Source: Escherichia coli | GTDB lineage: Bacteria; Pseudomonadota; Gammaproteobacteria; Enterobacterales; Enterobacteriaceae | Assembly (NCBI RefSeq): GCF_013315695.1 | Contig: NZ_CP054353.1 | DNA length: 64,000 nucleotides | Reading direction: 5' to 3' (one strand) | Part shown: piece by piece, positions 20,830-64,000 of the stretch | How positions within the stretch are numbered: position 1 is the first letter of the stretch | How the letters are laid out: each line of letters starts with the position of its first letter | The notes under the pieces: generated by a model | Seen by the model: only the letters and a program-made list of their open reading frames with translations | What the model was told of the DNA's origin: nothing | Database searches by the model: none | Program-made: the position numbers and the translations under genes

Positions 20830-20950
20830 GATTTCGTCCTTATTAAGGTGGTTATTTACACCTTAGCGCAAAGCGGATGTGGTTCCTACTGGAGTGCGCA
20901 TAACGAACACAAGCACTCTCGTGGATAAATTGAGAACGAAAGATCAAAAA

Positions 20951-21040
20951 AAAAGCCAGCACCCGGCTGGCTAAGTAATACTGGAAGCAATGTGAGCAAT
21001 GTCGTGCTTTCAGGTTCTCCGCGAGGGTCTTCCTGATCGC
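20951..21040 (-). ncRNA. ryhB: RyhB small RNA (Fur-repressed, Hfq-dependent)
   Basis: Reverse complement of 20951..21040 reads GCGATCAGGAAGACCCTCGCGGAGAACCTGAAAGCACGACATTGCTCACATTGCTTCCAGTATTACTTAGCCAGCCGGGTGCTGGCTTTT, the RyhB sequence as I know it, ending in a GCCAGC/GCTGGC terminator hairpin and U-tract. ORF-track entries 20852..21100 and 21010..21225 across it are spurious. Confidence 0.9.
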
Positions 21041-59228: not shown

Positions 59229-59254
59229 GTTGTCCATGATTGTCCATAGACAAC
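59229..59254 (+). promoter_or_regulatory. Candidate operator dyad upstream of the HutC-type regulator / PTS cluster
   Basis: GTTGTCCATG-N6-CATAGACAAC (arms match 9 of 10), 20-45 nt upstream of the regulator start; contains the GT..AC core common in GntR/HutC operators. Confidence 0.4.
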
Positions 59255-59276
59255 TGTAAATGTTCAGGTGCGCGCC

Positions 59277-60023
59277 ATGAAATCATTAAGTAAGTCGTCA
59301 CAAATACCGCTCTATCAACAAGTGGTGGAGTGGATAAGAGAAAGTATTTATACCGGGGATCTGGTGGAAGACGATCGCATTCCTTCGGAATACCAGATTA
59401 TGGATATGCTGGAAGTGAGTCGGGGAACCGTTAAAAAAGCGGTCGCCCAACTGGTAAAAGAAGGCGTGTTGATTCAGGTCCAGGGGAAGGGAACTTTTGT
59501 CAAAAAAGAGAACGTGGCATATCCGTTAGGTGAAGGATTATTGTCATTCGCGGAATCGCTGGAAAGCCAGAAAATACATTTTACCACTGAAGTTATTACG
59601 TCACGGATTGAACCGGCTAATCGTTATGTGGCAGAGAAATTAAGAATAACGCCCGGTCAGGATATTCTTTACCTTGAGCGTTTACGTTCAATTGGTGATG
59701 AAAAAGCGATGCTGATAGAGAACCGTATCAATATTGAGCTATGCCCCGGCATCGTGGAAATCGATTTTAATCAACATAATTTATTTCCAACAATAGAAAG
59801 TTTGTCGCAAAGAAAAATTCGTTACTCGGAAAGTCGCTATGCCGCGCGATTAATTGGTAATGAACGCGGTCATTTTTTAGATATCAGTGAAGATGCACCC
59901 GTTTTGCATCTGGAGCAGTTAGTCTTTTTCTCCCGAGAGTTACCCGTTGAGTTTGGCAACGTCTGGTTAAAAGGAAATAAATATTATCTGGGCACCGTGC
60001 TGCAACGGCGGGAAGTGAGTTAA
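59277..60023 (+). CDS. GntR/HutC-family transcriptional regulator (HTH plus UTRA-type effector domain)
   Basis: ATG at 59277 with AGGTG RBS (ORF track starts at GTG 59268); N-terminal HTH LVEDDRIPSEYQIMDMLEVSRGTVKKAVAQLVKEG. Confidence 0.8.
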   Translation: MKSLSKSSQIPLYQQVVEWIRESIYTGDLVEDDRIPSEYQIMDMLEVSRGTVKKAVAQLVKEGVLIQVQGKGTFVKKENVAYPLGEGLLSFAESLESQKIHFTTEVITSRIEPANRYVAEKLRITPGQDILYLERLRSIGDEKAMLIENRINIELCPGIVEIDFNQHNLFPTIESLSQRKIRYSESRYAARLIGNERGHFLDISEDAPVLHLEQLVFFSRELPVEFGNVWLKGNKYYLGTVLQRREVS

Positions 60024-60047
60024 ATACACTTTTTTATGAGGAATAAA

Positions 60048-60521
60048 ATGCAAGGCATACAGTTTCAGGAAAATTATATTCAACGACTTCCGGCAGGGTT
60101 AAGCGTTGAACAGATCATCCGTCAGTTAGCGCAACCGTTGGTTGCTGCTGAGCTGGTGGTCCCTGATTTTGCCAATCACGTACTGAAACGTGAGGCGACG
60201 TACCCAACGGGGCTGCCTACCGAACCACCGTGCGTCGCCATTCCGCACACGGACCATAAACATGTCCGGCACAATGCAATTGCCGTCGGTATTTTGCCAG
60301 AGCCGGTAGAGTTTGCCGATATGGGCGGCGACCCTGATCCCGTACCTGTCAGGGTGATTTTTTTGCTCGCCTTAAGTGAAAGTAATAAACAATTAAATGC
60401 CCTGGGCTGGATTATGGAGATGATTCAGGATACGCCCTTTATGCGCGCCCTGCTTACGATGGAAACAACAGAAATACACACAGTAATCTTAAACAAAATG
60501 AATGAACGAGGTGAAATATGA
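60048..60521 (+). CDS. PTS EIIA component, galactitol-type (EIIA-2 fold)
   Basis: ATG at 60048 with GAGGA RBS; phospho-His region CVAIPHTDHKHV; overall similar to GatA-type EIIA. Confidence 0.8.
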   Translation: MQGIQFQENYIQRLPAGLSVEQIIRQLAQPLVAAELVVPDFANHVLKREATYPTGLPTEPPCVAIPHTDHKHVRHNAIAVGILPEPVEFADMGGDPDPVPVRVIFLLALSESNKQLNALGWIMEMIQDTPFMRALLTMETTEIHTVILNKMNERGEI

Positions 60522-60799
60522 GTCAAACCATTTTATTTGTCTGCGCCACAGGTATTGCCACATCCACGGCGGTAACAGAAAAAGTCATGGAGTATTGCAA
60601 AGAGCACGGCCTTAACGTCAATTATTCCCAAACCAACGTTGCCTCTTTACCCGGTAATACCGACGGCGTAGCGCTGGTTGTTTCAACGACTAAAGTGCCT
60701 TATGAACTCGACGTCCCGGTAGTTAACGGCTTGCCGATTATTACCGGTATTGGCGAAGAGAAAGTACTGGCGCAAATTGTTTCGATTCTTAAAAAGTAA
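60518..60799 (+). CDS. PTS EIIB component, galactitol-type
   Basis: 93-aa ORF with phospho-Cys motif ILFVCATGIATS near the N-terminus; ATGA overlap with the EIIA gene. Confidence 0.8.
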   Translation: MSQTILFVCATGIATSTAVTEKVMEYCKEHGLNVNYSQTNVASLPGNTDGVALVVSTTKVPYELDVPVVNGLPIITGIGEEKVLAQIVSILKK

Positions 60800-60872
60800 T
60801 TAATAATTAATTCCAACCCACTCCATCAGGCGCTAACGCGAGGTGCGCTCTCGCCTGAAAAAGAGGTTTATT

Positions 60873-62231
60873 ATGAACGATATCGCGCATACCCTCTATA
60901 ATATTGTGCAATATATATTGGGATTTGGCCCCACGGTAATGTTGCCGTTGGTGTTATTTATTCTTGCTCTCTGTTTTAAAGTAAAACCCGCTAAAGCCTT
61001 ACGCTCGTCATTAACAGTCGGCATTGGTTTTGTCGGTATTTATGCCATTTTCGATATTCTTACCAGCAATGTCGGGCCAGCGGCCCAGGCGATGGTTGAA
61101 CGCACCGGAATTAATTTACCGGTGGTGGATTTAGGCTGGCCGCCGCTTTCCGCTATTACATGGGGTTCGCCAATTGCCCCGTTTGTTATTCCCCTGACCA
61201 TTCTGATTAATGTCGCAATGCTGGCGTTAAATAAAACCCGCACCGTTGATGTAGATATGTGGAACTACTGGCATTTTGCCCTTGCCGGTACGCTGGTTTA
61301 TTACAGCACCGGCAGCCTATTCTTTGGTTTGCTGGCGGCCGCGATTGCCGCAGTGGTGGTGCTAAAACTCGCCGACTGGTCTGCGCCACTGGTACAAAAA
61401 TACTTTGGCCTGGAAGGGATCTCATTGCCGACGCTCTCTTCGGTGGTGTTCTTCCCGGTCGGTCTGCTGGTCGACAAAATCATCGACCATATCCCTGGCC
61501 TCAATCGTATTCATATCGACCCGGAAACCGTACAGAAAAAGTTTGGCATCTTCGGCGAACCGATGATGGTTGGCACTATTCTGGGCATTCTGCTCGGCGT
61601 AATTGCCGGATACGATTTCAAAAAAGTCTTGCTGCTTGGCATCAGCATTGGCGGTGTGATGTTCATCCTGCCACGCATGGTTCGCATCCTGATGGAAGGT
61701 TTATTACCGCTGTCTGAAGCCATTAAAAAGTATCTCAATGCCAAATACCCTGACCGTGACGATCTCTATATAGGACTGGATATCGCCGTTGCCGTAGGTA
61801 ACCCGGCGATTATCTCCACCGCCCTGCTGCTGACGCCAATCTCGGTCTTTATCGCGTTTGTCCTCCCAGGTAATGAAGTCCTGCCGCTTGGCGACCTTGC
61901 CAACCTGGCGGTAATGGCGTCGATGATTGCTTTAGCCAGCCGTGGCAATATTTTCCGCACCGTTCTGGCGGCGATCCCGGTGATTATTGCCGACCTGTGG
62001 ATTGCCACTAAAATCGCGCCGTTTATTACCGGAATGGCGAAAGACGTTAACTTCAAATTTGCCGAAGGCTCCAGCGGCCAGGTTTCCAGTTTCCTTGATG
62101 GCGGTAACCCGTTCCGCTTCTGGCTGCTGGAAATCTTCAACGGCAATCTCATCGCCATTGGTCTGGTGCCGGTTATCGCCCTGATACTGTATGGCATTTT
62201 CCGAATGACGCGGAGCACGGTTTATGCCTGA
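60873..62231 (+). CDS. PTS EIIC permease, galactitol (Gat) family
   Basis: ATG at 60873 with AGAGG RBS (ORF track starts at GTG 60843); conserved blocks GPTVMLP, GIGFVGI, VDLGWPP, GEP, GNIFRT shared with GatC-type EIIC. Confidence 0.8.
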   Translation: MNDIAHTLYNIVQYILGFGPTVMLPLVLFILALCFKVKPAKALRSSLTVGIGFVGIYAIFDILTSNVGPAAQAMVERTGINLPVVDLGWPPLSAITWGSPIAPFVIPLTILINVAMLALNKTRTVDVDMWNYWHFALAGTLVYYSTGSLFFGLLAAAIAAVVVLKLADWSAPLVQKYFGLEGISLPTLSSVVFFPVGLLVDKIIDHIPGLNRIHIDPETVQKKFGIFGEPMMVGTILGILLGVIAGYDFKKVLLLGISIGGVMFILPRMVRILMEGLLPLSEAIKKYLNAKYPDRDDLYIGLDIAVAVGNPAIISTALLLTPISVFIAFVLPGNEVLPLGDLANLAVMASMIALASRGNIFRTVLAAIPVIIADLWIATKIAPFITGMAKDVNFKFAEGSSGQVSSFLDGGNPFRFWLLEIFNGNLIAIGLVPVIALILYGIFRMTRSTVYA

Positions 62232-63732
62232 TAACAGCGCAGCTATCGTTATCGATATTGGCACCACCAATTGCAAAGTCACCTGCTTTTCCTGCCTGGA
62301 TGCAACGACGTTGGGCGCGCATAAATTCGTGACGGCAAAACAGATCTCCCCACAGGGCGATGTCGATTTCGATATCGACGTCCTCTGGCAGGAGGTCCGC
62401 CAGGCAATAGCGCAACTGAGCGCCGCTTCGCCGCTGCCGGTCAGGCGGATAAGCATTGCCAGTTTTGGCGAGTCAGGGGTGTTTCTTGACGAGCATGGCG
62501 AGATCCTGACGCCAATGCTGGCATGGTATGACCGCCGCGGTGAAGAGTACCTGGCAACGCTTAGTGAGGCAGACAGTGCGGCGCTTTATGACATCTGCGG
62601 GCTACCGCTGCACAGCAATTACTCTGCCTTCAAAATGCGTTGGTTGCTGGAGCATTATCCACTGCGTAATCGCCGCGGCCTGCGTTGGCTACATGCGCCG
62701 GAAGTACTGCTCTGGCGGCTGACTGGCGAACAGCGTACGGATATCACCTTAGCCAGCCGTACGCTGTGTCTGGACGTGCGTAAAGGCGAATGGTCAGCGA
62801 AAGCGGCGGCGTTGTTACACGTTCCCTGTTCAGCATTTGCGCCATTGGTGCAGCCAGGCGAGCACGCCGGATGGGTCAGCGAGTCGCTCTGCAAAACGCT
62901 TGGGTTCTTGCAACCGGTCAGCGTGACGCTGGCCGGGCATGACCATATGGTGGGTGCGCGGGCGTTGCAGATGACGCCGGGCGATATCCTTAACTCGACG
63001 GGCACCACAGAAGGCATTCTGCAACTGGATACACAACCGACGCTGGATGAACAGGCCAAACGTGACAAGCTGGCAAACGGCTGTTATTCGCTTGCAAACC
63101 AGTTCACCCTGTTTGCGTCGCTGCCGGTGGGCGGTTTCGCTCTGGAGTGGCTGCGCAACACGTTCCGGCTAACCGATGAGGAGATCGCCGCATCACTTAC
63201 TCGCGGACATGCGGATTACCTGGCGGGGAACTGGTCGCTCGATGACATTCCCGTTTTTATTCCGCATCTTCGCGGTTCGGGTTCGCCCTATAAAAATCGC
63301 CATACCCGAGGATTATTTTATGGGCTTGGCGATACGTTAAATATCGATATGTTAATTGCCAGCGTCTCACTGGGATTAACCATGGAATTTGCCAACTGCT
63401 TCGCCTGTTTTAATGTGCCCGGCACCAGCGCGTTAAAAGTGATAGGTCCGGCAACCCATAATCCCCTTTGGCTGCAATTAAAGGCGGATATTTTACAGCG
63501 TCCGGTTGAAGCAATTGCATTTAACGAGGCGGTTTCTGTCGGAGCATTATTAACCGCCGCACCGGATATTCCACCGCCGCAAGTCACCATAGCCCAACGT
63601 TTGTTACCGAATCGGGCGAGATACCATCAATTACAGCGTTATCAGCACAAATGGAAAAGCTGGTATCAGTTGAAATTACAGCAAGAAGGCGTGATGCCAT
63701 TACATCATCGGGAGGAGCACTATGTTGAGTAA
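62224..63732 (+). CDS. FGGY-family carbohydrate kinase (rhamnulokinase/fuculokinase-like)
   Basis: 502-aa ORF; N-terminal phosphate-binding loop AIVIDIGTTNCKV and the FGGY second motif region AGHDHMVGA; overlaps the EIIC stop by 8 nt. Confidence 0.75.
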   Translation: MPDNSAAIVIDIGTTNCKVTCFSCLDATTLGAHKFVTAKQISPQGDVDFDIDVLWQEVRQAIAQLSAASPLPVRRISIASFGESGVFLDEHGEILTPMLAWYDRRGEEYLATLSEADSAALYDICGLPLHSNYSAFKMRWLLEHYPLRNRRGLRWLHAPEVLLWRLTGEQRTDITLASRTLCLDVRKGEWSAKAAALLHVPCSAFAPLVQPGEHAGWVSESLCKTLGFLQPVSVTLAGHDHMVGARALQMTPGDILNSTGTTEGILQLDTQPTLDEQAKRDKLANGCYSLANQFTLFASLPVGGFALEWLRNTFRLTDEEIAASLTRGHADYLAGNWSLDDIPVFIPHLRGSGSPYKNRHTRGLFYGLGDTLNIDMLIASVSLGLTMEFANCFACFNVPGTSALKVIGPATHNPLWLQLKADILQRPVEAIAFNEAVSVGALLTAAPDIPPPQVTIAQRLLPNRARYHQLQRYQHKWKSWYQLKLQQEGVMPLHHREEHYVE

Positions 63733-63991
63733 AACCGTGGAGGTCAGAAACAGTACTGGCCTGCATGCACGTCCGGCGGCCTGTCTGGCGAAAGCCGCCA
63801 AAAAATATAGCTGTAAAGTGACGCTGCATTATGAAGGTAATGATATTAATGCCACCAGCATGATGAATATTATGCGCGCCGGAATAAAAGGCGGAAAAAC
63901 GGTGGAAATACGCTGCGAAGGTGATGATGAAAACGAGGCAATACAAACTCTCACTACCTTATTTCGCGACCGCTTCGGTGAAGCTGAATAA
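63722..63991 (+). CDS. HPr-like phosphocarrier protein
   Basis: 89-aa ORF with the HPr active-site context NSTGLHARPAA (phospho-His); overlaps the kinase 3' end by 11 nt. Confidence 0.75.
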   Translation: MLSKTVEVRNSTGLHARPAACLAKAAKKYSCKVTLHYEGNDINATSMMNIMRAGIKGGKTVEIRCEGDDENEAIQTLTTLFRDRFGEAE

Positions 63992-64000
63992 TTAACTGAT

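Follow-up and report, generated by a model that had tools for sequence, protein, structure and literature searches.

The spacer between the EIIB and EIIC genes of an accessory PTS operon in Escherichia coli carries a predicted RNA hairpin (60826-60858, plus strand, of the 64,000-nt stretch of DNA that was analysed, referred to here as the window) that is conserved across the Enterobacterales, is probably functional and appears to be constrained in sequence along one of its strands. Judging by this pattern of conservation, the hairpin probably tunes the expression of the genes downstream. An earlier note on this DNA had described a stem-loop between two genes of the PTS operon, immediately ahead of the EIIC ribosome-binding site, and that feature is genuine. 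It is a newly described instance of a familiar feature; the intercistronic hairpin as such is well known, and no long-standing question is opened by it. If functional, it would constitute the one post-transcriptional control point within a widely distributed sugar PTS island.

The operon and its island

The operon runs in the order GntR regulator-EIIA-EIIB-EIIC-kinase-HPr-aldolase and is an accessory unit inserted after nikR, in an island between nikR and hicAB/yhhJ (59268-64000 and beyond). The gene for the GntR/UTRA regulator (59268-60023; ORF list, Pfam and RefSeq) is followed by the EIIA gene (60036-60521; RefSeq start at 60048) and by the EIIB gene (PTS_IIB; 60518-60799, plus strand; Pfam PF02302 and RefSeq), which is the cistron 5' of the spacer and ends in a TAA stop at 60797-60799. 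The cistron 3' of the spacer, also on the plus strand, encodes an EIIC of the EIIC-GAT (galactitol) family (60873-62231) from an ATG at 60873 that is also the RefSeq start, and is followed by genes for an FGGY kinase (62224-63732), HPr (63722-63991) and, just past the end of the window, a class II aldolase. Both the ORF list and the RefSeq annotation show the EIIB-EIIC spacer, at 73 nt, to be the sole sizeable gap in this series; the EIIA/EIIB, EIIC/kinase and kinase/HPr junctions overlap, and those that remain either overlap or nearly abut.

Of 5426 complete E. coli genomes, 1633 (approximately 30%), O157:H7 and ST131 included, carry the island locus, each as a single copy. Its distribution across families is sporadic, and it is clearly mobile. 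The 481 nt surrounding the hairpin are 100% identical to strain 2014C-3075. Between positions 1-40000 of the window and the sequence of that strain (NZ_CP027447.1), several test points are without shared exact 40-mers, and an offset of 20 bp is reached at 40 kb; upstream of the identical part the two are thus not collinear, or not identical, and the window belongs to another strain. The Salmonella counterpart of the operon is STM3779-3785, an island reported to be rich in A+T and silenced by H-NS, with a sugar specificity that is unknown (PMC3604774). In Salmonella enterica, a published analysis lists the island among the gains of the subspecies I ancestor. The literature found on the operon consists of such island-level mentions; identity with the vpe operon, which adjoins deoK, was ruled out.

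A candidate GntR/HutC-type operator, the palindrome TTGTCCATAGACAA at 59240-59253, lies 5' of the regulator gene and directly follows a direct half-copy, TTGTCCATGA, at 59230-59239. The core of the palindrome, TGTCYATRGACA, recurs at the corresponding position in 15 of 17 orthologous loci. The transcriptional control site of the operon is, on this sequence evidence, likely to be this candidate rather than any site in the spacer. The conserved block of the spacer is unrelated to the TGTCYATRGACA motif and was rejected as a GntR/HutC operator. Elsewhere in the window, the ryhB sRNA gene occupies 20946-21040 on the minus strand, between the yhhX and yhhY homologues, and matches the K-12 copy exactly; no ncRNA is entered at that position in the RefSeq table for strain 2014C-3075.

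Anatomy and predicted fold of the hairpin

The inverted repeat reported by the earlier note is confirmed as a perfect 7-bp repeat, TCAGGCG (60826-60832) and CGCCTGA (60852-60858), enclosing a GC-rich core of 19 nt. The repeat had also been placed about 5 nt ahead of the AGAGG motif, and while the proximity holds, the measured distance is 3 nt, with the SD sequence AGAGG at 60862-60866 and the EIIC ATG at 60873. The spacer begins with an A/U-rich part (60800-60825, plus strand; 31% G+C), the sequence of which drifts, yet is A/T-rich in every orthologue, and which is a candidate single-stranded RNase E entry region. Within the predicted hairpin, the arms enclose an inner stem formed by 60837-60839 with 60845-60847, and the 5' arm together with most of the loop makes up a near-invariant block, CAGGCGCTAACGCGAGGT (60827-60844, plus strand), which is the truly conserved part of the element. 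The A-rich linker that follows (60859-60872, plus strand) bears the SD at a spacing of 6 nt from the start codon, all of it outside the stem, and the alignment shows a conserved RGRGG.

Folding of the intercistronic region, the check that had been proposed for the stem-loop, returned the hairpin (((((((....(((.....)))....))))))) at -14.5 kcal/mol, and the same hairpin was obtained in a 111-nt context; its stability relative to shuffled sequence, on the other hand, is weak, with a folding z-score of -1.75 and 12 of 200 composition-matched shuffles folding as well. Ranked by energy among all 33-nt windows, the hairpin is within the top 0.8%. The window contains 193 perfect 7-bp inverted repeats whose arms are 3-25 nt apart, 53 of them with GC-rich arms, and shuffles give 88 +/- 13. 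Against chance, the fold alone is weak and unremarkable. The antisense strand of 60826-60858 folds at -20.1 kcal/mol, compared to -14.5 kcal/mol for the sense strand, through a 5-bp inner stem using G.U pairs, and is the stabler of the two in 5 of 19 sequences, that of the window among them; no U-tract 3' of the antisense fold and no antisense promoter are evident.

An in-frame GTG at 60843, within the hairpin, opens an ORF of 462 amino acids and is not a conserved start. Some Salmonella database entries give EIIC proteins of 465 and 478 amino acids with extended N-termini; these extended starts are argued to be mis-called because of the conserved N-terminus MN(D/E)(I/L)AH and the position of the SD. 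An upstream ORF or alternative start served by the SD-like GAGGT was also rejected, its AUG or GUG not being conserved.

Conservation across the Enterobacterales

The orthologue set was assembled from EIIC of one genome per species, with the addition of Salmonella, Gibbsiella, E. albertii, several assemblies and one metagenomic variant. Each of the 25 distinct orthologue sequences from the Enterobacterales, which represent approximately 17 genera, carries the element, with its GGCGCT motif 42-45 nt from the EIIC ATG, and a covariance model search found exactly one copy per locus, always in the EIIB-EIIC spacer. A pattern scan of metagenomes yielded 7 true matches among 26 and gained one new variant. 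Six diverse E. coli lineages share an invariant element between variable flanks.

In pairwise comparisons the block CAGGCGCTAACGCGAGGT (60827-60844) has a mean identity of 0.88. The 3' half of the element reaches 0.64, the part of the spacer ahead of the element 0.44, and the third codon positions of EIIC, 5% of which are invariant, 0.52. Since the synonymous sites are near saturation and the spacer has diverged to such an extent, the identity of the block argues for purifying selection on the element rather than recency. The sequence comparison suggests that conservation lies chiefly in the 5' arm and the loop, and less in the stem as it was originally drawn.

Pairing and its evolution

The 3' partner of the 5' strand differs by clade. 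The outer stem described in the earlier note is kept in Escherichia and Citrobacter, and in an Erwinia-like clade it is both kept and extended by UAACG/CGUUA with a bulged C. Together with an inner UAAC/GUUA helix, the outer stem accounts for 81% paired cells in the Escherichia and Erwinia-like clades, compared to 18-43% in slid controls. The Salmonella/Klebsiella/Cedecea clade, the largest with 14 distinct sequences, presents a degraded outer stem, with pair 6-28 broken in 9 of the 14. The minimum-energy fold of the Salmonella/Klebsiella clade is instead a shorter hairpin, CCAGGC-G-CU...AG-GUCUGG, in which the same 5' strand is predicted to pair with a nearer CUGG strand, and this short hairpin is 99% paired versus 12-61% in slid controls. 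The earlier expectation of a conserved and stable structure therefore has a mixed outcome: the position and the 5' strand are kept among the orthologues, and the stem is swapped in the largest clade, where its outer part is broken.

Natural substitutions mostly, though not always, preserve pairing. Pair-preserving variants include a C-G to U.G change in E. coli TUM9975, G.U to A-U in H11S18, G.U to G-C in Enterobacteriaceae 89 and A-U to G-C in E. cancerogenus and Pantoea, while in Gibbsiella the loop sequence is rewritten and a 10-bp hairpin still forms. Two stem positions carry G.U in 10 and 6 of 20 sequences, respectively, and these pairs, which work only in the sense-strand RNA, argue that the element is one of RNA and not of DNA. 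Significant covariation was not detected, with one double-sided change per model and values not exceeding those of shuffles, and folding z-scores of the orthologues span only +0.4 to -2.4. A hairpin on the invariant 5' strand is possible in every case, but one single conserved secondary structure is not proven.

Comparison with standard element classes

The hairpin falls outside the REP, terminator, RAT, thermometer and Rfam classes, as the defining features of each were sought and not found. It resembles a Rho-independent terminator as a GC-rich hairpin in a transcribed spacer, but differs in having no U-tract on either strand; the 3' flank is AAAAAGAGG and the minus-strand flank UGGAGUGGG, a terminator scan was silent, and neither a terminator nor an attenuator is indicated. 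A consensus scan of the spacer found no promoter-like site or terminator. The short GC-rich palindrome between operon genes, with CAGGC/GCCTG-like arm words, also recalls the REP/BIME elements, in which the order of the arms is presumably the opposite. A REP/BIME or other dispersed repeat was rejected, with one place per genome in all 1633 of the 1633 E. coli genomes with a match (481-nt and 49-nt queries). The window holds no second copy, a 3-mismatch scan giving 4 matches against 2.8 expected and a covariance-model search giving none. Rfam returned no match to the spacer at E<=10 in E. coli or E<=1 in Salmonella; noise elsewhere comprised a weak STnc410 match in EIIA (E=8).

An SD-sequestering hairpin or RNA thermometer is at odds with the placement of both the SD (60862-66) and the AUG (60873) 3' of the stem. 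A BglG/SacY-type RAT target was likewise discarded, the proteins of the operon being GntR/UTRA, EIIA, EIIB, EIIC, FGGY kinase and HPr, with no terminator present. Likenesses to sigma54, sigmaE and LacI/PurR-type half-sites, judged by eye, failed on spacing or symmetry. A possible anti-SD in codons 7-8 (ACC CTC) was set aside, as a hand estimate from the codon alignment put its third-position conservation apparently no higher than the 0.52 average.

A possible role in setting operon expression

The purifying selection on the element makes a role in setting the expression of the operon reasonable, and to this extent the earlier proposal of differential expression within the PTS operon stands, although its option of an RBS occluder does not. 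The spacer is laid out as an A/U-rich stretch, a GC-rich hairpin and an A-rich linker bearing the SD, and forms the only break in an otherwise overlapping string of genes; this layout, and its position at the sole break in a coupled operon, favour a post-transcriptional role. An A/U-rich single strand with a GC-rich hairpin is the classical layout of an RNase E entry site beside a protective stem. By analogy, the hairpin may serve as a segment boundary or stabiliser and as an organiser of the initiation region, a reading that is preferred here tentatively, with somewhat less than even confidence. As a cis-acting RNA on the sense-strand mRNA of the operon, it would set the expression of EIIC and the following genes by a mechanism other than RBS occlusion. 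It would uncouple EIIC from EIIB, could provide a structured 5' boundary for EIIC-kinase-HPr-aldolase, or a 3' boundary for EIIA/EIIB, against RNase E and exonucleases, and, by pairing the SD-like and anti-SD-like sequences of the spacer with each other, would keep the authentic SD in an open linker.

Intercistronic stabiliser or processing hairpins are exemplified by the malE-malF REP, Rhodobacter pufBA-pufLM and papB-papA. The hairpin described here is similar, in a comparison of sequence and prediction, in that a GC-rich stem-loop stands beside an A/U-rich single strand in an operon spacer, and a stable hairpin between co-transcribed genes, as is typical of the class, was found (-14.5 kcal/mol; 73-nt spacer; same-strand, otherwise overlapping genes). 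As in those systems, segments of unequal stability could give rise to unequal protein ratios. It differs from the malE-malF REP, a dispersed element, in being single-copy and operon-specific. It differs from a pure exonuclease barrier in that the sequence of the loop and of one strand does not vary across genera, and herein lies a drawback of the stabiliser model, as a purely structural barrier would need no invariant 5' strand and loop. A search of the literature and of published datasets for transcript-level or transcript-end records of this operon found none, and the supplements of the RNase E TIER-seq and iRIL-seq studies contain no entries under the STM tags.

Pairing with ArcZ and other alternatives

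As a structural barrier alone leaves the sequence invariance unexplained, 24 sRNAs annotated in E. coli K-12 were screened against the block using RNAduplex. The strongest duplex among the 24 was formed by nt 70-83 of ArcZ (CCUGGUGUUGGCGC), at -24.4 kcal/mol, in which GUGUUGGCGC pairs with GCGCUAACGC (10 bp), followed by a 1x1 loop and by CCU/AGG (3 bp), such that the complementarity covers block positions 60830-60839 and 60841-60843. Full-length RNAduplex runs against the whole spacer gave long duplexes and were uninformative, and a Spot 42 match to GAGGUCUGG (7-9 bp) was confined to one clade and at chance level. ArcZ is a core enterobacterial sRNA with a range restricted to the Enterobacterales, and its docking would explain the invariant 5' strand, the drifting 3' strand and the confinement of the element to this order. 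The conserved seed of ArcZ follows the RNase E cleavage site and mediates 330 of 335 RIL-seq interactions (PMC11331407), and it is exactly this seed of the processed RNA, CCCUGGUGUUGGCGCA, that would dock on the invariant 5' strand if the element were an ArcZ-responsive site, an alternative that is considered unlikely. Such docking would unfold the hairpin and, via Hfq and RNase E, change how EIIC is translated or how the mRNA decays, and the acquired PTS would thereby be tied to oxygen/ArcAB status.

Across the orthologues, the predicted ArcZ duplex reaches -20 kcal/mol or better in 23 of 25 sequences, and the unpaired G60840 is variable, with a G-to-C change in E. cancerogenus, Pantoea and Izhakiella that would produce 14 contiguous bp at -28 kcal/mol. 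In Salmonella, mutation of arcA lowers STM3784 (EIIA) 3.2-fold (PMC3075218); ArcA represses arcZ, and ArcZ is known to target acquired genes, such as the horizontally acquired STM3216 (PMC11331407). The site shares with the ArcZ targets rpoS leader, tpx, sdaC, STM3216 and flhD a seed complementarity of 13-14 bp. It also resembles them as an Enterobacterales-wide site in an mRNA leader, no more than about 45 nt from the start codon, on a transcript that is, like STM3216, horizontally acquired (PMC11331407). Unlike those targets, however, it is buried in a stable hairpin, its energy is no outlier against the local background, and several orthologues present a central mismatch. A60835, which pairs midway along the helix, is replaced by C or U in 8 of 25 orthologues and in a further one by G, which leaves a G.U wobble; in Gibbsiella the complementarity is gone but the hairpin is retained.

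The background for such a match is also high, as 73 of 127,966 18-mers of the window pair with the seed as well or better. Correction for accessibility leaves the E. coli site with a score of just -5.7 to -6.0 kcal/mol, at rank 19 of 55 among neighbouring initiation regions, these having been taken from genes of strain 2014C-3075, whereas the Salmonella-type site, at -12.1, would rank within about the top 7-9%. The accessibility-corrected score of GlmZ, which pairs via a non-seed region, equals that of ArcZ, and therefore a match of this size is expected by chance at about the 0.1 level. Holding the site open in silico did not sequester the SD, and the datasets and supplements searched contained no ArcZ chimera or regulation at this locus. 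A riboregulatory switch, with the 5' strand as a landing pad for the ArcZ seed or for another trans-acting RNA or protein, would place EIIC and the downstream catabolic genes under post-transcriptional ArcAB/oxygen control in E. coli, Salmonella and at least 15 other genera; on the modelled duplexes this broader proposal is likewise doubtful. Were the ArcZ lead true, a horizontally acquired metabolic operon would join the ArcZ regulon.

Sequence invariance of one strand and the loop, at a fixed distance from the ATG and in a single-copy, operon-specific motif, would also be expected of a translational operator or aptamer, in which a small ligand or a protein, perhaps one of the operon's own, binds the block. 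As the hairpin occupies the 30S platform zone (-47 to -15), a bound factor would block or help EIIC initiation. RNAalifold does predict an alternative state, comprised of an 18-nt hairpin within the block plus a helix in which 4 bp join the 3' arm to the SD; this helix shows a U-A to C-G change in 3 sequences. This alternative helix has, however, just 4 bp, and complementarity to the SD follows automatically from the SD-like 5' arm; no protein of the operon bears an RNA-binding domain, the Gibbsiella loop sequence is changed, and the element is very small. Such an operator or aptamer is accordingly judged improbable.

The absence of any function, with the inverted repeat arising by chance and its conservation only apparent, as a product of the recent horizontal spread of the island, would be in keeping with an accessory and mobile locus found in 30% of E. 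coli and sporadically across families, with the commonness of 7-bp inverted repeats and with the weak folding z-score. It is nevertheless highly improbable in light of the identity of the block (0.88) when set against near-saturated synonymous sites (0.52) and spacer (0.44).

There is very little to commend the option, put forward in the earlier note, that the stem-loop or an extension of it hides the EIIC SD and thereby throttles EIIC synthesis. The minimum-energy fold of the window sequence does lengthen the hairpin by 3 bp, through pairing of CUC (60821-23) with GAG in the SD, and the SD is predicted to be mostly paired in all orthologues (P(unpaired) of approximately 0.2-0.3). The SD nevertheless lies beyond the stem in every orthologue and its pairing partners vary among species, and the 3 additional pairs are lost from ST131-type E. 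coli, which has CUA, and do not occur in other genera. In silico, disruption of the arms, scrambling of the element and holding the 5' strand open shifted the opening energy of the initiation region inconsistently and by less than 1 kcal/mol on average. Mean opening energies were 7.1 kcal/mol with the hairpin intact, 6.9, 6.7 and 8.5 kcal/mol in arm-complemented or stem-restored variants, and 8.0 kcal/mol when scrambled, and holding the 5' strand open gave 5.9 versus 6.4 kcal/mol; arm mutations thus gave no consistent rise in predicted accessibility. With the SD outside the stem and accessibility unmoved by disruption, an RBS occluder is not supported.

Finally, an inverted repeat acting on double-stranded DNA, as an operator or other protein-binding site or as a cruciform, is scarcely credible: in E. 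coli the two arms match in full by Watson-Crick pairing, folding is stronger in the antisense strand (-20.1 kcal/mol) and GCGCTAACGC is a near-palindrome, but other genera pair the arms only via G.U, a mismatch in DNA and in the antisense strand, conservation is limited to one half, the spacer is without a promoter-like site, and the likely GntR/HutC operator is the different motif TGTCYATRGACA 5' of the regulator gene.

The EIIC junction in other lineages

Orthologues from Firmicutes, Selenomonads and actinobacteria lack the element. Enterococcus EIIC shares 76-78% identity with the E. coli protein, and in the Enterococcus and other Firmicute operons EIIB and EIIC nearly abut, with a GGAG SD within EIIB and without the hairpin element. 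The high identity of EIIC and the abutting Firmicute genes together suggest a transfer between phyla, with the structured spacer arising only on the enterobacterial side. If the hairpin is functional, a Firmicute-like operon would have been refitted for enterobacterial expression by the insertion of a structured spacer before the membrane permease gene. In Selenomonadaceae, Atopobiaceae and Thermogemmatispora, inverted repeats that look by eye as if they could form hairpins, and that bear no sequence similarity to the enterobacterial element, lie just 5' of EIIC, and hairpins at the EIIC junction may represent a recurrent solution in unrelated lineages.
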